Positions 1,868 through 39,640 of a stretch of DNA of 45,436 bases are shown here, piece by piece. A program made the translations under genes and the position numbers. The notes under the pieces are model-generated. The model saw nothing but the letters and a program-made list of their open reading frames with translations. It did not search any database and was not told where the DNA came from. This DNA is from a bacterium (lineage in GTDB: Bacteria > Patescibacteriota > CPR2 > UBA1875 > CAIMLA01). The first letter of the stretch is position 1, and each line of letters starts with the position of its first letter. The stretch is taken from positions 1 through 45,436 of the forward strand of contig JBAXUE010000007.1 of assembly GCA_037129835.1 (NCBI GenBank), given 5' to 3'.

Positions 1868-3112
1868 TCAAGTGGAACTTTCTGCGAATTTGAAGCCATC
1901 TTCACGGAAAAGGCTGAGACACGCCTCTGCTATTTCTGGACAATACTTTGTCCCAGCACCCTCTTCAATCTCCTCTAGGGCTACATCGATATCCCACGCT
2001 GGCCTGTATGGTCGGTGCGAAGTCATAGCTTCGACAACGTCAGCGACCATGAGAACCTTTGCCTGGATGAGCAGTTCATCTGCAGTAAGTCCAAGCGGGT
2101 AGCCCGTACCGTCACAACGTTCGTGATGTTGGTGGACGATATTAGGTATCGACTCTGGCATGCCTGAGGTTTTGAGAAGCTCGTAGCCCAGCTGCGAGTG
2201 ACTCTTTATCAGATCGAACTCGACTGGAGCTAGCCTGCCTGGCTTGGCCAATATTTCAGCCGGGATGCCGATCTTGCCAATGTCGTGAAGAAGTGCGGCG
2301 TCACGGAGTTCTGAGAATTTCGTAGCTGACATCCCCATTTTCTTCGCGATAGCCATTGATAGCTCAGAAACTCGCCTTTGGTGTCCGACGGTGTGGGGAT
2401 CGTGTGATTCACACACTCGATTGACAACATCGACTACTGAGCCATACGCCTCGGCCAGTCGTTCCTCGGCTTGCTTGAGATCACTGATATCCTGGATAGC
2501 CGTAACCTGATAAAGCAGCGAGTCGTCTTTGTCGCGAATTGCGGACACACTCACGTAAACCCAGATGATTTGGCCATCCTTACGCAGATATCGTTTCTCG
2601 ACTTGGTAGGAGTCCTGTCCATTGTCCTTCATGGCGTCTAGCACACCGATCGATTTCTCAACGTCTTCAGAGTAGGTAATATCGGTAAAACTTAGTTGCA
2701 CCAACTCTTGAGACGTGTATCCGAGGAGATCGCAGAGAGTCTGATTCACCCTGAACCAGCGTCCCTCTGGTGTAACTTCTGCAATGCCGATGGCTGCATG
2801 TTCGAAAATTGCTCGATAGTGATCTTGCTCGGTGAGCAGTTCCGAGGCGGCCCGTTTGCGTTCGGTGAGATTGTCAGAAACGTTCTCGGCCATCTCCTTA
2901 CGTATTTCGGAGGTGACCCCTAGCTGAGTCTGATGTTTGCTATGGCATACATTCAGACAATATGTGACAACCGAAGCAACTTGTGACTCGACACCTGGGA
3001 GTTGAACCAGTGCAGACAGTGCAGACTTAGCCTCCTTTTCTTCTTCTGAGAGTTTTGATAAGGTGAGTTCGTCCAAACTTTCCGGTACTTCTGGCAACTC
3101 GATGGTTGACAT
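1868..3112 (-). CDS. PAS sensor domain - HD-GYP domain protein (putative c-di-GMP phosphodiesterase)
   Basis: 414 aa. Central PAS-like block (IFEHAAIGIAEVTPEGRWFRVNQ...YLRKDGQIIWVYVSVSAIRD). C-terminal HD-GYP motifs: HTVGHQRRV, LHDIGKIGIP, HHERCDGTGYP. The DNA is visibly G+C-richer than its neighbours. Confidence 0.85.
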   Translation of the reverse strand: MSTIELPEVPESLDELTLSKLSEEEKEAKSALSALVQLPGVESQVASVVTYCLNVCHSKHQTQLGVTSEIRKEMAENVSDNLTERKRAASELLTEQDHYRAIFEHAAIGIAEVTPEGRWFRVNQTLCDLLGYTSQELVQLSFTDITYSEDVEKSIGVLDAMKDNGQDSYQVEKRYLRKDGQIIWVYVSVSAIRDKDDSLLYQVTAIQDISDLKQAEERLAEAYGSVVDVVNRVCESHDPHTVGHQRRVSELSMAIAKKMGMSATKFSELRDAALLHDIGKIGIPAEILAKPGRLAPVEFDLIKSHSQLGYELLKTSGMPESIPNIVHQHHERCDGTGYPLGLTADELLIQAKVLMVADVVEAMTSHRPYRPAWDIDVALEEIEEGAGTKYCPEIAEACLSLFREDGFKFAESST

Positions 3113-4827: not shown

Positions 4828-5511
4828 GTGAAAGATAATAAAACTGCAGTTTCTGTAAAGAATCTAATAAAAAAATATGACTCCGCTGGAAATATCACCT
4901 GTGCTATTAATGGGATTTCATTAGATATCGCATATGGTGACTTTTTAATGATTACGGGCATGAACGGTTCTGGAAAATCGACCTTAATGCACCTCATGGC
5001 TTTGCTTGATCATCCATCCGAAGGAGAGCTAATAATAGACGGTAATGATGTCAGTAAACTTCATGAGAAAAATAGAATCGGCTTAAGACTACGATTACTC
5101 GGTTATATATTCCAAGAGTACGCTCTCATCCAAGAGCTTACGGCACTAGAAAATGTGATGTTACCAGCTCAAATGCTAGATACTTTTCCTAAAGCAAAGA
5201 AGAAAGCGGAAATACTGTTCAAAAAAGTTGACTTAGAGAAAAAAATGAAAAGACTTCCCTCTCAGCTTTCTGGAGGCGAACAACAAAGGGTTGCGATTGC
5301 CAGATCTCTTATAAATAACCCACGCATCATCTTCGCCGATGAGCCAACCGCCAATCTAGACAGCGTCGCTTCAAAGCATGTTCTTGATATATTTAAAAAA
5401 CTGAACAAAGAAGATAACATTACTATAGTCATGGTTACTCACGAACCAGAGGAATTGGCCTACGCTTCAAGAGTTATTAATCTGAAGGACGGTAAATTAC
5501 ATGTTAAATGA
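4828..5511 (+). CDS. ABC transporter ATP-binding protein (MacB/LolD-like)
   Basis: Walker A GMNGSGKST, signature [15 protein letters not shown], Walker B IIFADEPT. GTG start. Overlaps the downstream permease gene by 11 nt. Confidence 0.9.
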   Translation: MKDNKTAVSVKNLIKKYDSAGNITCAINGISLDIAYGDFLMITGMNGSGKSTLMHLMALLDHPSEGELIIDGNDVSKLHEKNRIGLRLRLLGYIFQEYALIQELTALENVMLPAQMLDTFPKAKKKAEILFKKVDLEKKMKRLPSQLSGGEQQRVAIARSLINNPRIIFADEPTANLDSVASKHVLDIFKKLNKEDNITIVMVTHEPEELAYASRVINLKDGKLHVK

Positions 5512-6700
5512 ACTTAAACTGCCCTTTTATCTAGCCTTTAAGTCTATAATCAGAGGACGCAAATGGACTCTGTTTTTGACCATCCTCCTTATGTCTGTTG
5601 CATTTATTAACTTAATATTTGTCTCTGCTCTCTTTAACGGTATTGTAGCAGGAAGCAATCAACAGATAATAGACACTTTGACTGGAAATGTATATATCGC
5701 TCCAAAACAAGGTATTAAATATATCGATGACAAGGAAAAACTATTAGAAAATGTCCGAGCTGAAAACGGCGTTACTGCTGCTTCTTCGGGTTTCCAAATA
5801 CCCGGCGAGATAGAACGCAATGCACGCACCGGTAGATGGCCGATAATAGCCATAGACCCCAATGAGTACGCTAAAGTAATAAATGTTTCGGATCATATGT
5901 ATCAGGGTAAATACTTGGATGTAAACGACGAAGACCAAATAATCATTGGTAGACAAATAGCCGGAGGGACAGATGTAGAAATGAACTCCACATCCCTAAA
6001 AGGAGCTTCCGTCGGAGATAAATTGAATGTGAACTTCAACGGGATTAAAAAAACTTATACTATTAAAGGGATATTTTATACCAAATTTATCGAATCAGAT
6101 TCCAGGGCTTTCATCACCGAACGCTCACTAGCTAGTTTTGCACCGACCATGGTTGGCAAAGCCACGGCTGTAAATATCAAAACCCCAAATGACAAAGAAA
6201 ATTCTGTTATGTCAGAAGTCAAAGGACTAGCACCAGACACGGATACCTTCCTTTGGACAGAGGCCGCTGGTTTAATGAAATCTGTGAGCGGCAGTTTTAC
6301 TAGTATAAATGTCCTAATGACCATTGTGGGAGTCATAATCGCTGGCGTAACGACCTTCATCGTAATCTACGTTGATATTGTAAGCAGAAGACGTCAAATC
6401 GGAATCTTAAGAGCCATCGGGATCAAACCGTACATAATTGTAGCTAATTATGTAATTCTAGCAGCAGTCTATGCAACACTAGGCATCTTGCTTGGAAGTC
6501 TGATATTCTTCGCGGGCTTGGTGCCATATTTTATCGCACATCCCTTTGAACTACCTCTCGCTGAAGCCGTTCTAAACCTGACGCCAGCTGAATATTTCTT
6601 CCGTGTACAAATAGTTAGCTGGGTAGCGGTCATTTCTGGCCTTATCCCCGCTCTAATCGTAACAAAAACAAAGATGCTAGACGCTATACTTGGAAGATAA
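5501..6700 (+). CDS. ABC transporter permease, FtsX/MacB-type
   Basis: 399 aa. N-terminal TM helix, large extracytoplasmic domain and a C-terminal 3-TM FtsX-like bundle (RRRQIGILRAIGIKP...). Translationally coupled to the ATPase. Confidence 0.8.
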   Translation: MLNELKLPFYLAFKSIIRGRKWTLFLTILLMSVAFINLIFVSALFNGIVAGSNQQIIDTLTGNVYIAPKQGIKYIDDKEKLLENVRAENGVTAASSGFQIPGEIERNARTGRWPIIAIDPNEYAKVINVSDHMYQGKYLDVNDEDQIIIGRQIAGGTDVEMNSTSLKGASVGDKLNVNFNGIKKTYTIKGIFYTKFIESDSRAFITERSLASFAPTMVGKATAVNIKTPNDKENSVMSEVKGLAPDTDTFLWTEAAGLMKSVSGSFTSINVLMTIVGVIIAGVTTFIVIYVDIVSRRRQIGILRAIGIKPYIIVANYVILAAVYATLGILLGSLIFFAGLVPYFIAHPFELPLAEAVLNLTPAEYFFRVQIVSWVAVISGLIPALIVTKTKMLDAILGR

Positions 6701-7106
6701 TATTAACATTAAAGAAAGATCAGCCGGCGGGATAATCACAAGAATTAAAGGTGGTAATACCGAAATCCTCTTAGTTAAACATGCGGATAACAAATACAGT
6801 TTCCCCAAGGGTCATATAGAGCAAGGCGAATCTGAGGAAGAAGCAGCCAAGCGTGAGATCATTGAGGAAACTGGCTACGACAATGTTGTGATTAAAGAAC
6901 AGATTGGTATTATAAAACGAGACTCGCTCAATCCGAACGATCGTCACACTATCAAAGATGTTACAATGTTTCGGGCCGAGATAAGCGGAGACATAAAACA
7001 TATTGCCGAAGAAGAAATAGTTTGGATAAATATACAAAAAGTTCCCAATAAATTCTGGTACAAAGAAGATAATAAATTCTTCGACCACATTAAAGAAATC
7101 CTATAA
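6690..7106 (+). CDS. NUDIX hydrolase
   Basis: Nudix box GHIEQGESEEEAAKREIIEETG. Overlaps the permease stop by 11 nt. Confidence 0.8.
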   Translation: MEDNINIKERSAGGIITRIKGGNTEILLVKHADNKYSFPKGHIEQGESEEEAAKREIIEETGYDNVVIKEQIGIIKRDSLNPNDRHTIKDVTMFRAEISGDIKHIAEEEIVWINIQKVPNKFWYKEDNKFFDHIKEIL

Positions 7107-7177
7107 AAGTTTAATTTGCCAAACCTTTATCAATTATCAAACTTATATGCTATTATTATCTATAATATGGAGGCAAA

Positions 7178-7768
7178 ATGAGCAAAAAAGAAGCTGTTAA
7201 AAAGAACGGAATAATCGACTTTATACAAAAAGATTATAAAAAAATAATACTAGGTGGGATAGGAATCTACCTTCTCGTCTATGTGATAAATATAATTTTT
7301 TCATTTATTTGGGTTACCTTTTTTAGTACCGATATTGCTTCACTTATAGTTGATATTACCAAAGGTCAGACAGAGAAAGCGATTGAGCTCTATACCGTCA
7401 CATCCGCTAATTACTTTATATTTGGGCTTGCGGTTGCGGCTGTGGTTATTGTAGCTTTAATCGTAATAAATTTTGAGGAAAAATTTCTCTTGAATAAAGT
7501 TTCCTCCTGGAAAGAAACATTATTTCTAGGATGCCTTTGGTCACTCATTTTTGTAGCTTCAGAATACTTTATGATGGGAATAATGCAATACATGATACAG
7601 ACAACAATGCCGCTGGGGATAGGATATCCAATAGCCCTAGGAGTAACTGGCATAACACAGGGAGTTACTAGCTATACACCATTTTTTAGTTATTCTCCGT
7701 GGTATTTAATCTTTATTGTACTACTCCCAGCTACCAGTATTGCAATAAAAAAAGTCCTTAAAAAGTAA
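7178..7768 (+). CDS. Hypothetical multi-pass membrane protein
   Basis: 196 aa with several hydrophobic helices. TATAAT and a GGAGG Shine-Dalgarno lie immediately upstream (ctataatatggaggcaaaATG). Confidence 0.5.
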   Translation: MSKKEAVKKNGIIDFIQKDYKKIILGGIGIYLLVYVINIIFSFIWVTFFSTDIASLIVDITKGQTEKAIELYTVTSANYFIFGLAVAAVVIVALIVINFEEKFLLNKVSSWKETLFLGCLWSLIFVASEYFMMGIMQYMIQTTMPLGIGYPIALGVTGITQGVTSYTPFFSYSPWYLIFIVLLPATSIAIKKVLKK

Positions 7769-7800
7769 TTTTCCCTCTCTTCTTTCAGTATAGCAATAGA

Positions 7801-8031
7801 TCACGAACCCTTTGTAAATACTTTGCCTTGGATAATCTTATTGGCTGCACGATTATGGTATATCGCTTCTCGAGCAAATTCTTGGCCACAACTAGGACAA
7901 TTCAAATCTTTCAGGGTGTAATCTTCCACAATCATGTCTTTATAGCATTTTATCAGATGCCCCCGAATGTCTTTGTTGTAGGTATATAACAAAAAATTAC
8001 AATGAGCGCAGTAAATCTTAATTTTCTTCAT
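7801..8031 (-). CDS. Small zinc-ribbon protein (two CxxC pairs)
   Basis: 76 aa with CAHC...CPSC. No further homology recognisable. Confidence 0.4.
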   Translation of the reverse strand: MKKIKIYCAHCNFLLYTYNKDIRGHLIKCYKDMIVEDYTLKDLNCPSCGQEFAREAIYHNRAANKIIQGKVFTKGS

Positions 8032-8192
8032 AAATTAATTATATCAAATGACTTACCAAATGTATTAAAACAATTTACTTCTCCAGCAAATACTATTTAC
8101 ATATTATCGATTTTAGGTTATAATATCACCACTGAAAATCCGGTTGTAATCACTCGAGAGAGTACTTACGCCGATTACATGCACCTTAGGGG

Positions 8193-8570
8193 GTGAGCAT
8201 CTTGGGCAAAACCAAGAAGATGTTCCACAAGAAGTATCGTGGTCTCATCATCACCAAGTTAATGGCCCGTGATGGTAACAACTGTTGTCTTTGCCACGAA
8301 CTTCTCAGTAGACACGTAAAGGATTCAAAGAATGATTGGTACATCACGTTTGACCATATCATTCCTCGCTCCTTGGGAGGTGATTCTAGGCTGATAAACC
8401 TTCAGCTTGCACACCAGTGCTGCAACATCGCACGAGGCTCAGACCCCATCCTCCCCGAAAACGAAGAAATCTACGGGACAGGAGCGGTCACAACCAGTAA
8501 CAACGGGCTAGAGAGAACTTACCCCGAAGAAAAAGCCATTATCCTCGCAGAAATACTAGAGGAAACATGA
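8193..8570 (+). CDS. Stand-alone HNH endonuclease
   Basis: CCLCHE...FDHIIPRSLGGDSRLINLQLAHQCCNIARG is an HNH/His-Me finger motif with flanking Cys pairs. GTG start; an internal ATG lies 9 codons downstream. The DNA is G+C-richer than the surroundings. Confidence 0.75.
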   Translation: MSILGKTKKMFHKKYRGLIITKLMARDGNNCCLCHELLSRHVKDSKNDWYITFDHIIPRSLGGDSRLINLQLAHQCCNIARGSDPILPENEEIYGTGAVTTSNNGLERTYPEEKAIILAEILEET

Positions 8571-8702
8571 CAGGAGTACGCATCGAACTTCTTTAGTCGC
8601 TACTACGCGACAATCGGTGCTTTTTCTATAGTGGACAATAATATATTCTATATAACACAAAGATGGCTCACTTTATTTATAAATATTTGCTATAATAACT
8701 AC

Positions 8703-9248
8703 ATGAACATCAACCAAATCATAATGCTTGACTATTATGCAATAATTCCCCTCTTTCTAATTGGTTCTGCTTTGCATTTTGTTTATGAGTGGTCTAGGCA
8801 CAGCCGGAAGGTTGCCTTAATAGCAGCCGTAAATGAAAGCTATTGGGAGCATATCAAAATCGCCTTTTGGCCTATTTTTTTACTCTATCTTACTGAATAT
8901 GCACTAGGAGGATGGAAAATTACTTCATTTATACCAGCAAAAACTGTTTCTCTCTATGCGATCATTATCTTTATGGTTAGCTCCGTTTTCGCATATAAAT
9001 ATTTCAGCAAAAAGAACATTTTATTCCTAGACATTGGGCTTTTTGGTGTTACTATTCTTGTAGCTCAAATTATTGGTATTAATTTACTTAAAGACCTTAA
9101 CCCTTCCCTTCTAATTATCTGGGTTTCTGTATTTTTTTTATTTTCTATATTAATATCTTTTATCAGCTTTACTTTAAAGCCGCCTACGGAGCCCGATATC
9201 TTTAGGGACCCAATAACAAAAAAATATGGCATAAGAGGCCATAAATAA
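8703..9248 (+). CDS. Hypothetical multi-pass membrane protein (start moved to the internal ATG)
   Basis: The track ORF starts at 8631. However, an extended -10 TGcTATAAT (8688-8696) sits 6 nt before ATG 8703 (MNINQIIMLDYY...). The rest is hydrophobic helices (HFVYEWSRHS, WEHIKIAFWP). Confidence 0.5.
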   Translation: MNINQIIMLDYYAIIPLFLIGSALHFVYEWSRHSRKVALIAAVNESYWEHIKIAFWPIFLLYLTEYALGGWKITSFIPAKTVSLYAIIIFMVSSVFAYKYFSKKNILFLDIGLFGVTILVAQIIGINLLKDLNPSLLIIWVSVFFLFSILISFISFTLKPPTEPDIFRDPITKKYGIRGHK

Positions 9249-11783: not shown

Positions 11784-11801
11784 TTATTATAAGATACAAT
11801 C

Positions 11802-12293
11802 ATGAAAAACATTACTGACCAATATAGCCACAAAGGAATTAACTTCAAATTAACCTGGATACCAGGAGAATATTATGATAAATATAGTCCCATAACCCAA
11901 GTATATGGCTTTTGTTTTGATAACAAAAACAGACTATTGACAATAAAAAACAATTATTGGAAATGTTTCATGGTCCCTGGCGGTTCCCCAGAAAATAATG
12001 AAACACCCATAGAGACGCTTGTCAGAGAACTTGACGAGGAAGTAAATATTACCGTCAAAGACATAAATTACCTAGGAGTTCAAAAAGTTGAGGGTGATAA
12101 TAAGATTAGATATCAGCTTCGCTTTGCCTGTAGAATAGATAAGTTAAATAGCAGAAAAACAGATCCTTGCGACGGAATCATACATAGACGATACTTCGTT
12201 GACCCATTAAAATATGGGGAATTGTCCCTTTGGGGTGAGATTGGCGACGCCATAACTCAAAGTGCTATGGAAAAACTTAAGATAAAAAGCTAA
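11802..12293 (+). CDS. NUDIX hydrolase
   Basis: Nudix box GGSPENNETPIETLVRELDEEVN. Confidence 0.75.
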   Translation: MKNITDQYSHKGINFKLTWIPGEYYDKYSPITQVYGFCFDNKNRLLTIKNNYWKCFMVPGGSPENNETPIETLVRELDEEVNITVKDINYLGVQKVEGDNKIRYQLRFACRIDKLNSRKTDPCDGIIHRRYFVDPLKYGELSLWGEIGDAITQSAMEKLKIKS

Positions 12294-12305
12294 AATATTT
12301 AATAC

Positions 12306-12391
12306 GCCCTCGTGGTGAAATGGTATACACGCTACGTTCAGGTCGTAGTGGCCGCAAGGTCGTGCTGGTTCAAGTCCAGTCGAGGGCACCA
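12306..12391 (+). tRNA. tRNA-Leu (anticodon CAG), type II with long variable arm, CCA encoded
   Basis: GCCCTCG/CGAGGGC acceptor, CTACG-TTCAGGT-CGTAG anticodon arm, GGCC-GCAA-GGTC variable arm, GCTGG-TTCAAGT-CCAGT T arm, then ACCA. Confidence 0.9.
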
Positions 12392-12457
12392 AATAGTTAA
12401 TTTATTAGAGGAAACACGGGTGCTCTAAAATCTCCATAATATTATTTATATAAAATA

Positions 12458-13285
12458 TTATGTTGTAACGGGTCTCGATTGTAATATAAACAACTCATCA
12501 TCTTCAATAGCCCACTCTATATCCTGTGGACAACCATAATAATTCTCAATCAACATAACCAACTTCGAAAGTTTAAAAATTTTTTCGTCGGATAACTTTT
12601 GTAAACTCTGCTGACTTTGTTCAATAGAAATTGTCTCTGTACCATTTACTGTATTTATAATTTTTTGGGTTTGATTTGAAATTCTTTTCTCCCTTATTGA
12701 CAGGTCGTATTTACTAACAATGTAATTGTCTGGTGTTACCATCCCCTGCACCAACATTTCTCCCAAGCCATAGCAAGCTTCTATCATCATTTCTTCTTTA
12801 TTTCCAGTGACTGGGTTGATAGAAAAAACTACACCAGAAACATTACTATTGACCATTTTTTGGACCACGATTGCCAGAGCCAATTGATCCTCTGAAATGT
12901 CATTTCTCTTGGCGTAATACTTCACAGTTTCGCTATTTGAAGACTGCCAGCAATCCATAATTGCGTCTATTAGCCCCTCTCTATTCACGTTTAAAACTGT
13001 GTTAAATTGCCCTGCCCATGATGCGCTTGAGGAATCTTCTGCAATGGCAGAAGAACGAACCGCGACTCTATCTAAACCCAAGGAATCAAACTTGGCTAGA
13101 ATTTGTTTTTGTATTTTAGAAGGTAACTCAGACTCATGGAAGGAAATGTAGGCTTGAGTTGTAATAACAAAGCCAGTTGGTACAGGTATGCCGGATTGAG
13201 TCATCTCTCCCAGTGAACCGCCCTTACCGCCCACTTTAGCCACATCATTTTTAGAAATTTCATCAAAGTTCAAAATAATTGACAC
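12458..13285 (-). CDS. Stand-alone PPDK_N-type ATP-grasp (PEP/pyruvate-binding, nucleotide-binding) domain protein
   Basis: VGGKGGSLGEMTQSGIPVPTGFVITTQAY, VAVRSSAIAEDS, VVQKMVNSNVSGVVFSINP and QDIEWAIEDDELFILQSRPVT match the N-terminal domain of PEP synthase, PPDK and rifampin phosphotransferase. GTG start overlaps the upstream stop (TAGTG). Confidence 0.85.
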   Translation of the reverse strand: MSIILNFDEISKNDVAKVGGKGGSLGEMTQSGIPVPTGFVITTQAYISFHESELPSKIQKQILAKFDSLGLDRVAVRSSAIAEDSSSASWAGQFNTVLNVNREGLIDAIMDCWQSSNSETVKYYAKRNDISEDQLALAIVVQKMVNSNVSGVVFSINPVTGNKEEMMIEACYGLGEMLVQGMVTPDNYIVSKYDLSIREKRISNQTQKIINTVNGTETISIEQSQQSLQKLSDEKIFKLSKLVMLIENYYGCPQDIEWAIEDDELFILQSRPVTT

Positions 13286-14781
13286 TAGAAAATCCTTATC
13301 CTGTTATTATTTGCGTCAACTTCAACAATATCACCATTTTTAAGAACAGAATATAGATCCTCAACTCCCAGGATTGCAGGAATTTTATATTCCCGAGCCA
13401 GCGTTGCTGGGTGACTAGTCAAACTAGCACCATCGAATGTAATCATAGCCTTAATTTTATCAAAAATTACAGCATATTCTGGTGTGGTGATGGATGTTAC
13501 CAGAACATCTCCTTCGTGAAAATCGTTAAGATCATCCAGTTTTTCGACTAGCCTAACAGGCCCCTTATATTTTCCAAGACAGGCGACAAACCCCTTATAG
13601 GTTTTTTTCTTTTTAAACTGTTGCGATCCACCCTTTGGCACGACTTTCACATCTCCCGTAAACGTGATGTCATACTTTTGAATCATTTGAGGAACTTGTT
13701 CTCCCAAATACCTCTTACCTATACCATTTTCAAAAATATAGAACGAACTATTTACAATAGCTTCGGCACTTGATTCTGTGATTTTTTGTCCGGTCATTAA
13801 ATAACCATTTGTATATTCTTCAGGCATAATGTTTCGGGATAAACTCGCTGACAGATTATATAATCCTCCCAAATCTTCTGCAAACTTATCAAAATATGAA
13901 ATAATTCTGGTCATGCAAAATTTACGAGTCTCTTTTAATAAAATTATATCCCTTACGATAGATACACTTGCTTTAGTTTCGTCCGATAAACCCAAATTAT
14001 TCTCTAACCTATCCTGCGAAAGTCTCACCTTATTAAGTGTTTCTAAATATTCTTCTTTTTTCTTAGTTCTTTCTGCGCTTGTCATTTCACGAAACATTGA
14101 TATTCTCTTATTGATACCATCGTATGGTTTTGTTTTTCCAATACTACCCATAAATAGACTGTGCCATTTCTTAGAATGCTCGGCCAAATTGTTCTCTGTG
14201 GTTTTATCTATTGAATCAAGAATCTCAATAAGCTCTAGGTCATGATCGTAAATGAAATTCGCCCCCGGATTCCTTGTCAATTCCAGGACGTATTCATCTA
14301 ACTTTTCCTCAGCTGTAACATATTTGGCCAAATCAGCCCTTACGTCCCTTACTACATTTAGAATATTTGCCACATACGCAAAACAGCAAAGAGTTCGGTA
14401 GTGATCACATATTTCCCCATAAACGGCTATTGTGGTCTGTTTAGTTTTGGCGGAGTCATTGAGCGTATAGTAATTTTCCAGAATAGACATAATTTTTTCA
14501 TACCTACCCATAATTGAGTCGGTGTACTCCTGAATTTGATTATGTTTTTGTTGTTTTTCAAAAAGAGTCTTTCTCGCACGTAAGAGGTCCGCCTCCGACC
14601 AGAAACCATTACTATAGTCCGCAAAATTTACAACGATTTGTGCCTTTTCGAATCTAGCTCCAACAAGTTCAAACATTTTCTGGCTTGTCATAGCCTCGTT
14701 AGACAACATTCCTGGAAAATAGGGGGTCGAACCGGGACGAATGGCAATGTTGAAATAATCGCTCTTTTCTTTCTGACTCAT
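13285..14781 (-). CDS. Unknown ~390-aa N-terminal domain fused to a PEP-utilizer swivel (phosphohistidine) domain
   Basis: C-terminus GDVLVTSITTPEYAVIFDKIKAMITFDGASLTSHPATLAREYKIPAILGV matches the mobile His domain (normally GGxTSHAAIvAREl.iPaVvG). The N-terminal part has no motif I recognise. ATGA overlap with the upstream gene. Confidence 0.75.
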   Translation of the reverse strand: MSQKEKSDYFNIAIRPGSTPYFPGMLSNEAMTSQKMFELVGARFEKAQIVVNFADYSNGFWSEADLLRARKTLFEKQQKHNQIQEYTDSIMGRYEKIMSILENYYTLNDSAKTKQTTIAVYGEICDHYRTLCCFAYVANILNVVRDVRADLAKYVTAEEKLDEYVLELTRNPGANFIYDHDLELIEILDSIDKTTENNLAEHSKKWHSLFMGSIGKTKPYDGINKRISMFREMTSAERTKKKEEYLETLNKVRLSQDRLENNLGLSDETKASVSIVRDIILLKETRKFCMTRIISYFDKFAEDLGGLYNLSASLSRNIMPEEYTNGYLMTGQKITESSAEAIVNSSFYIFENGIGKRYLGEQVPQMIQKYDITFTGDVKVVPKGGSQQFKKKKTYKGFVACLGKYKGPVRLVEKLDDLNDFHEGDVLVTSITTPEYAVIFDKIKAMITFDGASLTSHPATLAREYKIPAILGVEDLYSVLKNGDIVEVDANNNRIRIF

Positions 14782-15938
14782 TGTTCTCTCATTCCCGTAA
14801 CGTCACCAGTTTTTATGATATAATCTTCAACAATTTCACCTTCTGTAGTCAAGCTCGCCTCAACGAGCGCAAAAGCACCGTTTGTTGCGAAAGCAATTGG
14901 GTGCCTATGGTCCGTAGCAACAAATAAAGCTTCGGATATATTTGTAGCGAATTGTCCGTGCCTTCCAGCAATTATTACAACTTTATCGACTCCTTTTGGT
15001 ATATTGCCTTCTATTAAAAAGTATTCTTCTAGAGCATCAAAACCGTCTAGCCCTCGTGCCACAGTTGCACTCGCTACCTCGTTCATGGCAGTTTTACTCT
15101 CTAGCTCCTGTAAATCTACAGCAAATGAGGCGAATACCGTAGGGGAAACAGAGGGAGAATTTGGATATGGGCGTGGCGACCCTTCTTTTTCTGCTGCTCT
15201 GTTGGCAATAGCCTGTGTACTAGCCTTTTTGTAGGTAACTGAATCCGAAATCTGAAACTCATCCAAGCTATTACGAAATCTTCCTGTAACGGCATCATGG
15301 CCAGTTTCTGGATCAATATCATCGAAATCCCGATCTTTATATTTCAGGCCACGTTCATCTAACAGTTGTTTGATCACATCAATTGTTGATTCTGTCCTGG
15401 AAACCCTAGAAGTAGGCTCGCCCTCAGAACCACCAATATAGGTTGTAGCCCTGCTGGCGACAATGAAAATCAATGTGTTTGGTGTGATATCAAGATCTTC
15501 AATGAGATGCGAAGCTCTTTCACGATAAGCCTCCTGGGTCTCCAATGCAACGCCATTATTGTCATGCTCCAGATGCCTGACATTTGCAATAACCAACTTT
15601 GGCCCGACTAATTCAACATCAATAGATTCTGGGCTTCCGATCTCTGGCATAAGTTCTTTATAATCATAGATGTCTCGTCGATAGTCTGGATAAGAGACTC
15701 TTTGGTCCGTACCCGAAAGCTCTTCAATCAAAGCCTCTTGTGCCAAAACCTGTTTTTTTACGATTTCGGGTGTGGTTTTGGTCGACTTGACAGATTCTAC
15801 TCTTGGTCTAATAACTCTTGTTACCAGACGCTTACCACCATCAGATGTTATTTCAACTGCCGGGGTTCGATCTCCCCTTGATTTTTCGTGAAAAGCTTCC
15901 TGCTCTTGGTTATGTGGTGGCAAAATACCTTCAATCAT
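14778..15938 (-). CDS. Hypothetical protein; weak histidine-phosphatase (PGM-like) superfamily motifs
   Basis: 386 aa. LVIANVRHLEHDNNG resembles the RHGExxxN motif, and VVIIAGRHGQFATNISEAL resembles the second His strand. These motifs are suggestive only. Confidence 0.4.
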   Translation of the reverse strand: MIEGILPPHNQEQEAFHEKSRGDRTPAVEITSDGGKRLVTRVIRPRVESVKSTKTTPEIVKKQVLAQEALIEELSGTDQRVSYPDYRRDIYDYKELMPEIGSPESIDVELVGPKLVIANVRHLEHDNNGVALETQEAYRERASHLIEDLDITPNTLIFIVASRATTYIGGSEGEPTSRVSRTESTIDVIKQLLDERGLKYKDRDFDDIDPETGHDAVTGRFRNSLDEFQISDSVTYKKASTQAIANRAAEKEGSPRPYPNSPSVSPTVFASFAVDLQELESKTAMNEVASATVARGLDGFDALEEYFLIEGNIPKGVDKVVIIAGRHGQFATNISEALFVATDHRHPIAFATNGAFALVEASLTTEGEIVEDYIIKTGDVTGMREQ

Positions 15939-15953
15939 AAAAATTTCCTAACA

Positions 15954-17084
15954 CTAAGTTTTTTTAACGTCAAAAGGCGTGAGATCGGGTGTCATTACAG
16001 AAACCTTTAATTCGGCTGGCAAAAACCAAATTAAGCGATAAAACAATAATCCCTGTCCGCCAGATCTAATTTTTAAATTCGGGCTTTCTTTTACTAAAAT
16101 ATCTATAACTTTTGAGTGTATATCGAACCACATCGGCAAAAGCTCTGTATCAATTGCTCCAATAATATCTTTATATCTGGCAAAATTTCTGGACTGTTTA
16201 TATGAAATTTCAAATACCTCATATTCTTCTTTTGATAAAACTTTTTTGGCTTGAAGAAATATTCTATCAATATCCGCAGTCATTCCGATGTAACGTTTCT
16301 CTAGTTCAATATTTTCGTTTCTAAACTCTACAGCATGGGTCAAGGCATTCGTTAGGGGAAGCATTTTATTGTATCTTTTAGCAAGATTTAGGGGAATACT
16401 AAGCTCGCCTATTAATGATTCGCGATTCTTTGTATCTTTGATGTGTTCTATCATTGGGTACAGTTCTTCCCACAATATATTTATTTCTTTTTGGTTTTCC
16501 TTAACATCATCTGTAATCAGTTTTAAGACTTCTGAATAAATTTCTTTAAACTCGGGTATATTCTCCAATAATCTAATAATTTTGACACCCGAAAGTGCCT
16601 GCTGAAGATAAAGATCTGCAAAATCACTTTGTAGTAAATCTCTTTGGACTAAAAGCACTTTTTGTTCAAACTCTTCAGCTTCCCCAGAGACGTCAACAAA
16701 CTTCCGAATCATGTGCTTCATCATGTCGATATAAAATTCATGAATTGGACCATCAGCAAATAAATAATTAACAATCCAAAATCTATAACAAAACAGTTTA
16801 TTTAGCCTCAGGTCTGTTTCTACTAAAAATTTAAGGTTCGACTGATTACCATTTTTGTATTCTGTTTCGATCTTTTTAAAACCATCCCATAATTCCTTTT
16901 TTTGCGAATCAGCATATTCACTAAACCCTTCGGGGTCCATGGCATACTTTTCAGCTACTTCTTCATATTTTTTAATAATGCCGGGGTATTTATTTGGATA
17001 ATAAGATATAAAATCCTCAATATCATTTGGTAAAAATCTCGGAAACTTTAATAAATTATCTGGTATTTTTAGACTAATACTCAT
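15954..17084 (-). CDS. Hypothetical, predicted all-helical protein (start moved to ATG 17084)
   Basis: The track ORF begins at 17126 inside the upstream gene. GGGAG lies 5 nt before ATG 17084 (MSISLKIPDN...), which gives an 11-nt overlap with the upstream stop. No motif recognised. Confidence 0.55.
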   Translation of the reverse strand: MSISLKIPDNLLKFPRFLPNDIEDFISYYPNKYPGIIKKYEEVAEKYAMDPEGFSEYADSQKKELWDGFKKIETEYKNGNQSNLKFLVETDLRLNKLFCYRFWIVNYLFADGPIHEFYIDMMKHMIRKFVDVSGEAEEFEQKVLLVQRDLLQSDFADLYLQQALSGVKIIRLLENIPEFKEIYSEVLKLITDDVKENQKEINILWEELYPMIEHIKDTKNRESLIGELSIPLNLAKRYNKMLPLTNALTHAVEFRNENIELEKRYIGMTADIDRIFLQAKKVLSKEEYEVFEISYKQSRNFARYKDIIGAIDTELLPMWFDIHSKVIDILVKESPNLKIRSGGQGLLFYRLIWFLPAELKVSVMTPDLTPFDVKKT

Positions 17085-18342
17085 AGATACTCCCATCTTG
17101 TCCGTCAAGAATAATTTTTTGGCCATCGACTAGGGTAGCAGTAGCTAGCTGAGTCCCAACAACGCAAGGTATATTAAATTCTCGAGCCACAATGGCAGCA
17201 TGACAAAGGTTTCCACCAAGGTCCGTAATAATTCCACTTGCCCTTCTGATCGCCAGCAAAAATTGTGGTCTAGTCATGGCGGTAACCACGATATCTCCCT
17301 TGCTTACCCTTTCCATTTCTTTTTCCATATTTCCCTGATGAAACATATTAACTAGCCTCACGACCCCAACCACCTTTCCGGAGGAAGCGGGGTAACCACT
17401 TAGTATTCTTTTTGGTTTCTTTTCAAAGGGCTTAAAATATTCCCGCAATTTAGACTCGAGTTCATTGTATTGGCTGGATGATTTGAGCCAACTTTTCTTA
17501 TCGTGTGTTATTGGTATTCCTTCAATATGAATTTCACCGACTATTTGTTTAATATCCTGATTTGGGTTGAGGCCGATTTTGTCATATGTTGTTACTAGGC
17601 GGCCCCTTCTAAAAGTACTAAGTCCATGATAGTTTTTATTCAGGCCGCTAAGTTGATAACCCCACCAACCCGTAGCTTTTCCTCCTTTGAAGACAATCTC
17701 AAATTCACTTCTATTGTTGTCTAAAATTTCAGGAAGCAATGGTTCACATATTTCTTTGTTATATGTCAATTCCATCTCGTCGTTTTTAATAAATGGAGCA
17801 AATCTTGTCCCAAACTCTTCCTTTATATTTTTAACAAGCTTTTCATTAACATCGACTTTTAGCCTTTTTATAATAACAGTTGTGCCACTTCTACCCTTTT
17901 CTACGTTTCGATGTATTATAAATGGATATTCATACCAGCTACCATGTTCTAGCCAATGGTCTTCGTCATATTCAAGGATATACTCTTCATCTTTATCAAG
18001 TGGTGTTGTTATTAGTGTAAATGTGTGACCCAGGAAGGAAGTCGACGTCTTGAGGCCCAAACCAAATTCGCCTAGTTGTAGTTTTTTTTCAGAAAAACCA
18101 AGACGTATTGATTTGGCTGCCATTTCTTCAGACATGCCGGTCCCATTATCAGTAATTACAATTTCGTCTGGAGTTATATCGAGAGATACCAAGAGTTTTT
18201 TATTTGGTATTCGAGCATCAATAGCATTGTCAATCAATTCAGAAAGTGCTTCTTGTATAGAATAGCCAGTTTGGCTTATTTTCGTCATAATGCTTCTGTG
18301 AGGAGATATATCTATTAACTTCGTTTCAGTTGTTTTTGCCAC
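17074..18342 (-). CDS. GHKL (Bergerat-fold, HATPase_c_3-like) ATPase fused to a PEP-utilizer swivel phosphohistidine domain
   Basis: N-terminal motifs LSELIDNAIDA (N box), DNGTGM (G1) and GEFGLGLK (G2). C-terminus GDIVVTAMTRPQFLLAIRRASGIITDLGGNLCHAAIVAREFNIPCVVGT is a canonical swivel domain. GTG start preceded by GGAG. Confidence 0.8.
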   Translation of the reverse strand: MAKTTETKLIDISPHRSIMTKISQTGYSIQEALSELIDNAIDARIPNKKLLVSLDITPDEIVITDNGTGMSEEMAAKSIRLGFSEKKLQLGEFGLGLKTSTSFLGHTFTLITTPLDKDEEYILEYDEDHWLEHGSWYEYPFIIHRNVEKGRSGTTVIIKRLKVDVNEKLVKNIKEEFGTRFAPFIKNDEMELTYNKEICEPLLPEILDNNRSEFEIVFKGGKATGWWGYQLSGLNKNYHGLSTFRRGRLVTTYDKIGLNPNQDIKQIVGEIHIEGIPITHDKKSWLKSSSQYNELESKLREYFKPFEKKPKRILSGYPASSGKVVGVVRLVNMFHQGNMEKEMERVSKGDIVVTAMTRPQFLLAIRRASGIITDLGGNLCHAAIVAREFNIPCVVGTQLATATLVDGQKIILDGQDGSIYEY

Positions 18343-18420: not shown

Positions 18421-18570
18421 ATTAGACCTTGACGAGGCCTCACCAACCTCTGAGTCTCACCCAGGAGCCCAGGTGTATATGGGCCAAAGAGAGTCCGGGT
18501 GACCGGAAAGTCAAGTGGAACCGTCCGAAGAATTTCGGGCCTTGACGGCCAATTTTGGTCGTTATTTTAA
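18421..18570. ncRNA. Candidate structured small RNA or 5'-UTR element of unknown class
   Basis: A G+C-rich block in an AT-rich 300-nt intergenic region. Stable local hairpins: UCCGG-GUGA-CCGGA (18494-18507) and GUCCGAA-GAAU-UUCGGGC (18523-18540). On the + strand, TATAAT at 18409-18414 lies just upstream and GGCCA-AUUU-UGGUC plus a U-rich run (18547-18568) lies at the end. Confidence 0.3.
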
Positions 18571-18639
18571 TTCACCTTGTTAAAAAATATTTGCGAATAT
18601 TGACTAATAAACCATTTAACTGGGTTAAGGAGTAAAATT

Positions 18640-19062
18640 ATGTCAGCAGAAAGAAATCAAAGACCAGAACAAACAGAAGTTCAACAAGCAAAAGAAAAGG
18701 TTATTAAACTTAAAAATACCATTTATGGTCTTTTCGACACTCTCTTAAATATGCAATATACAAAGCCAAATGAAAGAACAGAGACCGACTACAAAATGAT
18801 TACTCAAGTAAAAACAGAAATCAGAGGCCTTATAGAAAAACTAAAATTATATGCAGACAAAATTGGCCCAGACGAATTTCAAAAAGCCATGAAAGGCATC
18901 ACCGGCCAGGTAAAGAACAGACTGAATTTGGACAATACAAAAGAACACATGCAGACCGAGGCAAGCGCTTTTTTACTAGAGCTTGGAGTAGATACAGATA
19001 CAGTAACCAAAACAAAGGCAGAAACATATATTGTAAGCGAACCCCCTGAAGGAGAAGAATAA
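18640..19062 (+). CDS. Hypothetical protein
   Basis: 140 aa with an AAGGAG Shine-Dalgarno upstream. No motif recognised. Confidence 0.5.
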   Translation: MSAERNQRPEQTEVQQAKEKVIKLKNTIYGLFDTLLNMQYTKPNERTETDYKMITQVKTEIRGLIEKLKLYADKIGPDEFQKAMKGITGQVKNRLNLDNTKEHMQTEASAFLLELGVDTDTVTKTKAETYIVSEPPEGEE

Positions 19063-19063
19063 C

Positions 19064-19669
19064 ATGCCCGAACAATTATCAAATATAAGCCCAGAACAAC
19101 GAGGAATGCTTAGAGATATCTCCAAGAATGATAAGGAGAGAGCTAGGGATATTGACGCCATCGGTTCTATTCATGAGGCAATAATGGGTACGAGAGCGAC
19201 AGATCCGAAAGAAACCTTGGATTTACTAAAAGTAAAAATAGCCGAACTCAAAACAGAACTTTTCAAAGAAGGTAGTCACGAAAACAAAGAGACCACATCT
19301 ACAGAGGAAATTAGACAAAAACTAATCGAGATACGCCTGCACGAAGAACGATTAGAAAATATCGAAAAAGGAGATATTGAAAAAACAGATTCTGCGGCAG
19401 ACCTAACGGAATTTTCAAAGCTTGAAAAAACAGATGTTTTTCGCGATATCGTTCAAGAAATAACCATGCTAGTACACGATGCCTATTTTCAAAACAATCC
19501 TGACAAAAGCCGACAAGCTAAAGAAGCGCTGACGGCAATGGGAGTTGATATCACAAGTATGGACAGCGTAACACCAAATAATAGACCTCTGCCGATAGAC
19601 AAAATTAATTATTTTGCCTACCAAATATATAAAAAACGAAGAAAGGAGTTACACAATGGAACAAACTAA
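19064..19669 (+). CDS. Hypothetical acidic protein
   Basis: 201 aa. Begins 1 nt after the previous stop and overlaps the thrS start by 14 nt. Confidence 0.5.
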   Translation: MPEQLSNISPEQRGMLRDISKNDKERARDIDAIGSIHEAIMGTRATDPKETLDLLKVKIAELKTELFKEGSHENKETTSTEEIRQKLIEIRLHEERLENIEKGDIEKTDSAADLTEFSKLEKTDVFRDIVQEITMLVHDAYFQNNPDKSRQAKEALTAMGVDITSMDSVTPNNRPLPIDKINYFAYQIYKKRRKELHNGTN

Positions 19670-39054: not shown

Positions 39055-39058
39055 AATA

Positions 39059-39640
39059 CTTAGTTAGCCGATAAGCCGGGTTCTGTTCGTCCGGCAGCTG
39101 CCGGATCTGACGATCATCTATCTATGCGACAGGACTACTAGAAATGGGTCTGTATCACGACTTTTTCGAACTAGTCATCTTAAGAGAGATTACCCTCTTT
39201 CAAATCATACTCGACACAACCATTAGCCCACCTGTCTTGCACCTGATAGGGTTTACCTCCGTCTGCTGTCGCCAGCAGGCGCTGTGAGCTCTTGCCTCAC
39301 TCTTTTCACCCTTACCACGTAAACGTGGCGGTATTGTCTCTGTGGCACTTTCCCTAGCCTTAGAACCCACTCAGAATCTCATGTTGAGCTTCAACTTCTT
39401 AATTTCGAGCTAAAAGCTTGAAAATTGAAGAAAAATATCGAGATATATTGACGAGTTTTGAATGATTTGCAGCCGAAATTATACAGCTTTAGCCAACAAG
39501 TACTCTATTCGAATATATTCTTTCAAAACGGTGAGGTTTTGAGTGGGTTCATATAACCGGTCGCCGTTAGCGACTATCATGATAACAAGGTGCCCGGACT
39601 TTCCTCTCCAAAAAGGAGCGATCGTCTGGATAACTAAGCT
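39059..39640 (-). ncRNA. rnpB: RNase P RNA (bacterial type A) with a large helix expansion
   Basis: The reverse complement reads AGCUUAGUUAUCCAGACGAUCGCUCCUUUUUGGAGAGGAAAGUCCGGGC..., then GUCGC-UAAC-GGCGAC (P8-like), GUGCCACAGAGACAAUACCGCC, GGUAAGGGUGAAA, and finally ACAGAACCCGGCUUAUCGGCUAACUAAG. The universally conserved CR-I and CR-V blocks and the P1 pairing (CUUAGUUA/UAACUAAG) are all present. Confidence 0.9.

Follow-up and report, generated by a model that had tools for sequence, protein, structure and literature searches.

The 45,436-nucleotide stretch analyzed here (contig JBAXUE010000007.1 of the GenBank assembly GCA_037129835.1, Patescibacteriota, CPR2; hereafter, the window) carries on its minus strand, at positions 17074..18342, a gene (gene A) whose 422-aa product combines an ATPase module of the MORC/MutL type with a swivel (phosphohistidine) domain of the phosphoenolpyruvate (PEP) synthase type. 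This fusion is genuine, and gene A belongs to a recurrent cassette that additionally encodes an all-alpha protein (B), a phosphatase (C in the window, X elsewhere), and an ATP-grasp protein (E). It is proposed, with a probability of approximately 50%, that protein A is the phosphocarrier subunit of a split PEP-synthase-type dikinase, in which E would charge the carrier, B would accept the phosphate, and the phosphatase would reset the system, a MORC-like clamp or gate having been added to this machinery. The description of A as a GHKL-S5-swivel fusion is based on its open reading frame (ORF), Pfam matches, 120 homologues with 57–100% identity, and an AlphaFold2 model compared with known structures in the Foldseek program.

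The first-pass annotation of the window had described this ORF as an unusual domain fusion and quoted its characteristic motifs, and all of them are present in a continuous frame: ELIDNAIDA (residues 34–42), DNGTGM (residues 65–70), GEFGLGLK (residues 91–98), and GGNLCHAAIVAREFNIPCVVG (residues 376–396). Homologues of A were taken from NCBI, JGI, ENA, and Logan assemblies, and 50 of them were aligned; the motifs are conserved in this alignment, to which all statements on invariant residues of A refer. The N-terminal part of the protein (residues 1–165; 17848..18342, minus strand) comprises a strap and the Bergerat (GHKL) ATP-binding domain, recognized by invariant columns and by the Pfam family HATPase_c_3 (4.4e-17, residues 27–136). 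It is followed by an S5-domain-2-like transducer with a linker helix at residues 290–306 (residues 166–305; 17428..17847, minus strand), for which there is a match with Morc6_S5 (1.8e-6, residues 228–303), invariant residues, and a Foldseek match with MORC3. As for the C-terminal part (residues 306–422; 17074..17427, minus strand), it is the swivel domain: residues 306–421 match positions 350–462 of the PEP synthase model NF005057 (2.8e-30), and the Pfam family PEP-utilizers (PF00391) matches residues 347–417 with an E-value of 3.9e-24, covering model positions 2–72 of 72. The pyruvate kinase model NF004978 matches residues 330–421 as well (1.3e-14), and the PDB swivel matches include the pyruvate kinase chains 2e28 and 3t05. 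The predicted phosphoryl-carrying histidine, His381, is encoded at 17200..17202 (minus strand) within the segment 17155–17229, whose translation is ITDLGGNLCHAAIVAREFNIPCVVG; it is invariant, in agreement with the earlier description of a PEP-utilizer domain with a catalytic histidine.

The residues expected for ATP binding and hydrolysis are retained. The N box (E35-L-I-D-N39-A-I-D42) has invariant E35 (the general base of this family), N39 (the Mg-binding asparagine), and D42, the G1 box has invariant D65 and G69, and the G2 box with the lid has invariant G91-E-F-G94, G96, K98, and T99. In the transducer, RRGRLVT (residues 245–251) and H280-D-K-K283 are invariant, and the lysine of the HDKK motif is the probable sensor of the gamma-phosphate, an assignment that we presume from its likeness to the HPAK motif of MutL. 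The linker between the S5 and swivel parts includes a 17-residue helix. The swivel contains the sequence T373-D-L-G-G-N-L-C-H381, in which G376, G377, and H381 do not vary and T373 hardly varies; the motif has been defined as T/S-x-x-G-G-x-x-x-H (PMC12167813). Conservation is about even over the three domains, all of which are intact: mean pairwise identity is 0.62 in the GHKL part, 0.64 in the S5 part, and 0.69 in the swivel. The N-terminal strap is also near-invariant at D11, I12, P14, H15, and S17. The conservation of this segment (D11–S17), which a 404-aa database version of A lacks, and the sequence GGAG located 9 nt upstream of the GTG codon at 18342 favor this GTG as the start.

According to AlphaFold2 modeling with the alignment of 50 homologues, protein A has a predicted local distance difference test (pLDDT) score of 82 and a predicted template modeling (TM) score of 0.72, with low pLDDT in the ATP lid (residues 81–96). 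Foldseek analysis of the model found the ATPase modules of MORC3, MORC4, MORC2, SMCHD1, and Hsp90/TRAP1 (E-values from 4e-18 to 1e-13), the top match being MORC3 (5ix2, 4e-18, TM-score about 0.52, approximately 390 columns). No HisKA or HPt match was found in A by Pfam, and the GHKL domain begins at residue 27. These data, together with the matches to HATPase_c_3 and Morc6_S5, agree with the earlier assignment of the GHKL domain to the MORC/MutL/Hsp90 type; a sensor histidine kinase is ruled out by the lack of HisKA and by the MORC-type site. A eukaryote-type MORC protein is ruled out as well: no CW zinc finger or coiled coil was found by Pfam after the ATPase module, and residues 306–422 contain only the swivel. 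The isoelectric point is approximately 6.4 for A and approximately 5.1–5.6 for B in most orthologues, and neither protein shows a charge bias pointing to nucleic-acid binding. A search for riboswitches or leaders upstream of A gave no Rfam match better than E 0.8, and the fold of this region is unremarkable.

The first-pass annotation had allowed for two genes joined by an assembly or frameshift artefact at about 17350–17450. This region (residues about 297–331, ...FKPFEKKPKRILSGYPASS...) is a single open frame with a linker that is conserved in the 50 homologues from independent assemblies, and for this reason the artefact explanation was rejected as extremely unlikely. A search with A among 5.8 billion proteins gave 616 matches, the best 120 of which have 57–100% identity; nearly all of these 120 are 415–430 aa long and contain every domain, the few others being shorter partial entries. 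The uninterrupted fusion of approximately 420 aa is present in at least 120 protein clusters, and 185,579 species-representative genomes yielded 31 loci with A, 28 of them with the full-length uninterrupted fusion. The hosts belong to the Patescibacteria (Colwell-, Buchanan-, Vogel-, Campbell-, Nomura-, and Kuenenbacteria and Saccharimonadia) and to gut Clostridia. One further A–B locus, outside the 31, was found in a metagenome-assembled genome (MAG) of Woesearchaeota (L033; loci are denoted by L and a number), and its A protein has the same domains. This is the distribution that the annotation had suggested establishing. The identity of A between phyla is 57–86%. The cluster P0098 comprises 613 member sequences, and the loci of its group derive from gut Clostridia MAGs; in at least ten gut Clostridia species the cassette occupies one syntenic site. 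Full-length A was not found in the phage, plasmid, and IMG/VR collections. The annotation supplements of a Southlakia Tn-seq study contained no swivel or PEP synthase gene, and the cassette is apparently absent there.

Homologues of A carry generic names in the sources, such as “ATP-binding protein”, “PEP-utilizing enzyme”, and “probable phosphoenolpyruvate synthase”. Within the searches made, a fusion of a GHKL/MORC ATPase with a swivel was not described in the published literature, curated family libraries, or the defence catalogue, so the earlier remark that this architecture is not known from characterized proteins still stands. Three loci (L002, L007, and L025) come from MAGs labeled Gammaproteobacteria or Burkholderiaceae; their cassettes are 58–74% identical to A of the window, which is within the range of the Patescibacteria-labeled ones, and these bins are probably mislabeled or contaminated. 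In L014, the phosphatase gene X is present as two ORFs (142 and 139 aa, 5260–6073), and in L028, A is shortened to 350 aa (7992–9044); both cases are possibly decay or sequencing errors of single genomes.

The genomic context, which extends beyond the first-pass annotation, consists in the window of genes B, C, D, and E directly downstream of A; the five closely packed minus-strand genes A-B-C-D-E occupy positions 12458–18342. Over the 31 genome loci, the order that recurs is A, B, X (a phosphoglycerate mutase (PGAM)-like phosphatase), and E (an ATP-grasp protein of the PPDK_N family, named after pyruvate phosphate dikinase, PPDK). Gene B directly follows A in 31/31 loci, its ORF either overlapping that of A or abutting on it. 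A PPDK_N gene adjoins A-B-X in 25 of the 31 loci; it is of the stand-alone E type in 22 of them, is fused to its own swivel in L004 and L010, and is split and located upstream of A in L013. In most cassettes of the 31 loci, A is the sole swivel carrier. In L033, the genes that come after A and B encode, in this order, an acylphosphatase, an LMWPc protein (which takes the place of the phosphatase), a further swivel protein, and a PPDK_N protein.

Gene E of the window (12458..13285, minus strand) encodes a stand-alone ATP-grasp protein of the PEP synthase/PPDK type with a length of 275 aa (PPDK_N; NF005057, 9.6e-80). Stand-alone E proteins retain invariant GGK21, RSS77–79, E257, Q269, and R271 and have no swivel of their own. 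To our knowledge, the only activity of PPDK_N-family ATP-grasp proteins is (pyro)phosphorylation of a swivel histidine. Since E lacks a swivel and A is the sole swivel in most cassettes, A would be the only available acceptor for E. Separate ATP-grasp subunits have been reported to charge the swivel histidine in trans in PpsAB, CreHI, and HpeHI (PMC12167813). It is for these reasons (the role of PPDK_N, the trans precedent, and the sole swivel) that E is proposed as the charger of A. The same precedent contradicts the earlier statement that swivel domains are known only as intramolecular phosphoryl shuttles; in addition, a swivel-like domain ends some pyruvate kinases.

Gene B (15954..17126, minus strand) encodes a protein of 390 aa without Pfam domains, the members of its family being 370–390 aa long. 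In the window, the B ORF overlaps the end of A, and the true start is probably an internal methionine approximately 10–15 codons in. The AlphaFold2 model of B (pLDDT 90.9) is all-alpha with 19 helices and disordered residues 1–16. Foldseek found no fold match for it in PDB (best E-value 0.29, TM-score 0.21 or lower), and its homologues are called “hypothetical protein” wherever the source gives a name. An exhaustive hidden Markov model (HMM) search with B over 1.84 billion representatives (1.84e9) found only 49 clusters, all from its own isolated family. A relationship of B with the substrate domain of RPH/HpeH was considered and rejected: the hhalign probability against D was 0.2%, and the PDB profile search, Foldseek, and the HMM search were all negative.

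The most distant B-like proteins (E-values from 1e-31 to 1e-35) fall in 12 loci (L032, L034–L036, and L038–L045) that constitute a sister family without the GHKL module. In all 12, a free swivel protein of 115–140 aa overlaps the B-like gene (two are cut by the contig end); examples are L036:7664-8014 and L038:122-478, with no fused enzyme domain. These free swivels are 43–59% identical to the swivel of A and less similar to that of D. An E-like ATP-grasp gene adjoins in three sister loci (L038, L040, and L042). A phosphatase adjoins in at least seven, with His_Phos_1 confirmed in L032, L038, L040, and L041 and LMWPc in L042 and L043; L036 encodes an X-like RHG protein with a homologue in L034, neither with a Pfam match. 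Thus, a swivel domain of this kind can exist as a free carrier protein. The conserved unit is the swivel, B, and the phosphatase, usually with the ATP-grasp protein, and the GHKL-S5 module is an add-on to a once-free carrier, as follows from the GHKL-less family that keeps the swivel–B pair and the phosphatase. Judging by this conservation, the data point to the ATP-grasp protein E as the donor and the helical B as the partner of the swivel, even in the GHKL-less relatives. These comparisons neither favor nor count against the suggestion of the first-pass annotation that the GHKL module is the target of phosphohistidine transfer.

Comparison of the two B branches shows the common residues W117, Y121, P127, Y173, K319, D320, G323, D326, W333, and W367. 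In addition, the GHKL-linked branch has numerous invariant polar residues of its own and a tail conserved at the C-terminus (K374, D381, and F385); these branch-specific residues could mark contacts with the ATPase module. An HPt/DHp-like histidine acceptor role of B is not supported, since the sister family lacks H129 and H264, which are conserved solely in the branch linked to GHKL.

The phosphatase gene C (14778..15938, minus strand) encodes a divergent PGAM-like histidine phosphatase of 386 aa with an N-terminal extension, which aligns with the X family. Across 17 aligned C/X proteins, R121, H122, H327, and G328 (RH...HG) are invariant, as expected for the RHG motif with the nucleophilic histidine and for the second conserved histidine of this superfamily; His_Phos_1 matches 9 of the 17 (best 1e-6), and the family profile matches PDB 3eoz (8.6e-7). 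Gene C alone has no Pfam match. The X proteins are 216–369 aa long, and the C-like form with the N-terminal extension also occurs in L003, L024, and L025. In L027, a cofactor-independent phosphoglycerate mutase gene lies directly upstream of A (6413–7966) and a second RHG-type phosphatase-like gene follows X (12376–13308); the last 1 kb of this locus shows no ATP-grasp gene. In both the GHKL-linked and the sister family, the phosphatase has been swapped for a non-homologous type (PGAM-like versus low-molecular-weight protein tyrosine phosphatase (LMW-PTP), plus the acylphosphatase in L033), which argues that the removal of phosphate is integral to the system.

The domains are identified, their catalytic residues are invariant, and the association of the genes is conserved; the phosphotransfer steps and the roles of B and the GHKL module given below are inferred. 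Protein E would bind ATP and (pyro)phosphorylate His381 of the A swivel in trans, as PpsB, CreI, and HpeI do. The phosphorylated swivel, moving on the linker with the 17-residue helix, would dock on B as the second (acceptor) site. The phosphatase (PGAM-like C in the window, X elsewhere, LMW-PTP-type in some loci) would then strip the phosphate from the product or the carrier, which would make the process a cycle. Since the full hydrolytic MutL/MORC-type ATPase site is kept, the GHKL-S5 module would most likely act as an ATP-driven dimerizing clamp, either gating or positioning the swivel or keeping hold of a bulky substrate.

Several points weigh against this split-dikinase proposal. The putative acceptor role of B comes from gene association, and B has no recognizable fold and no known active site. 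No ATP-grasp gene adjoins in L026, L027, and L036; E may therefore not be obligatory or may be encoded elsewhere. The proposal does not specifically explain why a MORC-type ATPase that is fully competent should be present. Finally, a cassette with both a kinase and a phosphatase seems futile, except in a regulatory role or if the phosphorylation serves as a transient activation.

A related reading, tentative and rather doubtful at present, assigns a macromolecular client to the system and would make it a phosphotransfer machine of a new kind: a MORC-type clamp with a phosphohistidine arm charged by the ATP-grasp protein would, together with B, hold a client (a protein, a nucleic acid, or a polymer) and phosphorylate it, the PGAM-like or LMW-PTP enzyme being the eraser. 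It is unlikely that the GHKL domain itself is the donor, as in a single-chain histidine kinase, transferring the gamma-phosphate of ATP to His381 in place of the PEP synthase ATP-grasp domain, with E serving only other swivels such as D. The order of a nucleotide-binding domain, a linker, a swivel, and then B mirrors PEP synthase and PPDK, phosphorylation of histidine by GHKL domains is established in sensor kinases, the loci L026 and L027 have A-B-X without an adjacent ATP-grasp gene, and in some loci there are extra swivel proteins that E could serve. However, the ATP site belongs to the hydrolytic class of MutL and MORC (E35, the general base, precedes N39 by four residues, and the S5 part has the invariant HDKK), the best structural matches are MORC, SMCHD1, and Hsp90 and not kinases, and most cassettes with A as their sole swivel protein have E conserved. 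Moreover, the GHKL-less sister system keeps the swivel–B pair with an ATP-grasp gene nearby, which means that GHKL is not needed for charging there. The reading in which the swivel no longer transfers phosphate and serves as an allosteric or docking appendage, A being a MORC/Hsp90-like ATPase that acts on B, is very improbable. Such a role has been suggested for the swivel-like domain at the C-terminus of certain pyruvate kinases of the Bacillus type, and the above matches with NF004978 and with the chains 2e28 and 3t05 show swivel-like domains on non-dikinase enzymes; but the swivel of A is its most conserved domain, its motif glycines and histidine are invariant, and it is accompanied by a phosphatase and by an ATP-grasp partner that looks active.

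An anti-phage or conflict system, in which a MORC-like ATPase senses or clamps the nucleic acid of an invader, phosphohistidine switches on the effector B, and the phosphatase is the off switch or antidote, is likewise improbable. In the plasmid set, the nearest GHKL-S5 relative without a swivel (25% identity, 6e-28) lies among helicases, an HsdR-N protein, and MazF, and a ParE toxin gene adjoins L033. The spread of the fusion is patchy (31 loci in 185,579 genomes, in Patescibacteria and Clostridia, plus the Woesearchaeota MAG, and apparently not in Southlakia), which implies horizontal transfer. Analysis with PADLOC-DB 2.0 showed partial matches of A within the GHKL region, namely with MzaB (6.8e-8, residues 13–103), TmtA, and REase_II, those with MzaB and TmtA being weak. 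On the other hand, no known defence model covers A past the GHKL N-terminus, so A was not accepted as a component of a known defence system; nothing significant was found in the same database for B, C, D, and E, the sole entry being a weak one of B with E1-E2 (E 0.022). There is also no nuclease, NADase, pore, or other effector domain, the neighbors are housekeeping genes, and the cassette occupies the single syntenic site in gut Clostridia mentioned above. It is absent from phage, plasmid, and IMG/VR collections, and the identity of A between phyla would be unusual conservation for a defence gene.

By analogy with known systems, protein A would act most like the split dikinases. In PpsAB, CreHI, and HpeHI and in their fused homologue RPH, a stand-alone ATP-grasp part charges the swivel histidine on another chain and a second substrate is then phosphorylated (PMC12167813; PMC4844700). 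Genes D and E of the window fit this scheme directly, D having the RPH-like domain and the C-terminal swivel. In contrast, it is a GHKL-S5 module, and not a substrate-binding domain like that of RPH, that carries the swivel in A; B, the presumed acceptor, is encoded separately and has no detectable similarity to the RPH/HpeH domain, and the cassette adds a dedicated phosphatase. An RPH-type two-component dikinase subunit is ruled out for A itself by its different N-terminus and by the unrelatedness of B to the RPH domain. With PEP synthase and PPDK, the cassette shares the central domain (the swivel of A), the N-terminal domain (E, here supplying the ATP-grasp for the swivel in trans), the TxxGGxxxH motif, and the ATP-grasp residues; it differs in the splitting of the domains over genes, the extra GHKL-S5 module, and the lack of the PEP/pyruvate TIM barrel. 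No such domain (PEP-utilizers_C) was found by Pfam and NCBIfam in A, B, C, D, or E, and B is all-alpha; PEP synthase, PPDK, and Enzyme I are ruled out on this ground. Like Enzyme I and HPr of the phosphotransferase system, the swivel histidine of A would hand phosphate to a separate protein, and the free swivels of the sister family formally resemble small carriers; however, the cassette has no PEP-binding domain, HPr, or EII, and the ATP-grasp protein implies ATP and not PEP as the donor.

With MORC, MutL, Hsp90, and SMCHD1, protein A shares the GHKL-S5 module, the N, G1, and G2 boxes, the strap, and the transducer lysine motif, whereas it has a swivel in place of a CW, coiled-coil, endonuclease, or C-terminal dimerization domain. 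It also differs from the prokaryotic MORC-like defence proteins in its partners, which are a dikinase ATP-grasp protein and a phosphatase rather than nucleases or helicases. In glucan water dikinase, separate carbohydrate-binding domains hold the glucan, and dedicated phosphatases reverse the mark. A report on this enzyme describes mobile histidine and ATP-grasp domains that phosphorylate a polymer, starch, and not a small metabolite (PMC13553574). The enzyme may serve as a conceptual model for a clamp-plus-carrier acting on a macromolecule; its sequence kinship with the cassette is limited to the dikinase domains, and A binds no known polymer. The VadK protein of M. tuberculosis (Rv1127c) is an autophosphorylating regulator derived from PPDK and has been described as a histidine kinase that interacts with methylcitrate-cycle enzymes and regulates pathway flux (PMC13400623). 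It resembles A and E in having an ATP-grasp domain and a swivel histidine outside PEP/pyruvate metabolism, and it differs in being a single chain without GHKL, without a B-like partner, and with no phosphatase reported.

The product of gene D (13285..14781, minus strand) is 498 aa long and consists of a helical region that resembles the substrate-binding part of RPH/HpeH and of a swivel at the C-terminus. PEP-utilizers matches residues 421–492 (1.6e-17), residues 237–497 match positions 629–867 of NF004879 (5.9e-15), and the swivel matches RPH (5fbs) at 5e-12. An orthologue is present in L003, and D is an accessory of some loci. Taken together, D and E resemble the two-component dikinases for small molecules such as PpsAB, CreHI, and HpeHI, with an ATP-grasp subunit that the GHKL-swivel protein would share. 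Other accessory proteins combine an unannotated N-terminal domain of approximately 270–390 aa with a C-terminal swivel (L024:7005-8228, 11786-12853, and 12850-13953; L025:11464-12534; L033:10442-11497; L013:11199-12590), and a protein of 899 aa contains two swivel domains (L004:7487-10186). The presence of extra swivel proteins in these loci suggests that one ATP-grasp subunit serves several carriers.

As for the surroundings of the cassette, its neighbors include genes for threonyl-tRNA synthetase (ThrRS), malic enzyme, tRNAs, and a NUDIX protein, as well as UvrA, UvrC, and YchF in L001. A tRNA-Leu gene is located in the window at 12306–12391, 67 nt beyond E. In at least eight gut Clostridia assemblies (L012, L015–L017, and L019–L022), the contig ends approximately 150–250 nt past E, which hints at a repeat or an RNA gene there. 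Between A and a divergent 140-aa ORF, there is an intergenic stretch of approximately 150 nt (18430–18580) that is richer in G+C than the background of approximately 37%; it contains a terminator-like hairpin at 18543–18564 (plus strand). This stretch has no Rfam match, and its fold z-score is only −1.8. The adjacent ORFs of 140 and 201 aa (18640–19669, plus strand) have no significant Pfam, NCBIfam, or PADLOC match. The 201-aa ORF overlaps the TTG-started ORF of ThrRS (19614), the true start of which is probably an internal ATG approximately 14 codons further downstream. Elsewhere in the window, a class A bacterial RNase P RNA match spans 582 nt (39056–39637, minus strand) for a model of 367 positions, so this RNA must have large insertions. 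A signaling protein with PAS and HD-GYP-type (HD_5) domains is encoded at 1868–3112 (minus strand), where the 1-kb bin has 51% GC versus approximately 38% elsewhere; this gene is possibly a recent acquisition.

Both the swivel-histidine dikinases and the GHKL clamps are ATP-using machines that have been studied well, and no earlier case of their combination was found in the searches made. Here, the carrier is joined onto a MORC/MutL-type ATPase and is under very strong constraint across Patescibacteria and gut Clostridia. Hosts of the Patescibacteria type have small genomes and keep few non-essential genes; given this and the tight conservation, the four-gene cassette with its fold-orphan subunit probably performs uncatalogued chemistry or regulation. 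The cassette is a test case for the way in which modular dikinases gain new acceptor and control modules, and the gut Clostridia of the P0098 group are potentially more tractable hosts. If the client proved to be a macromolecule, ultra-small symbionts and some gut anaerobes would possess a reversible modification system built on a dikinase, and GHKL clamps would for the first time be linked functionally to phosphotransfer of the PEP synthase type.

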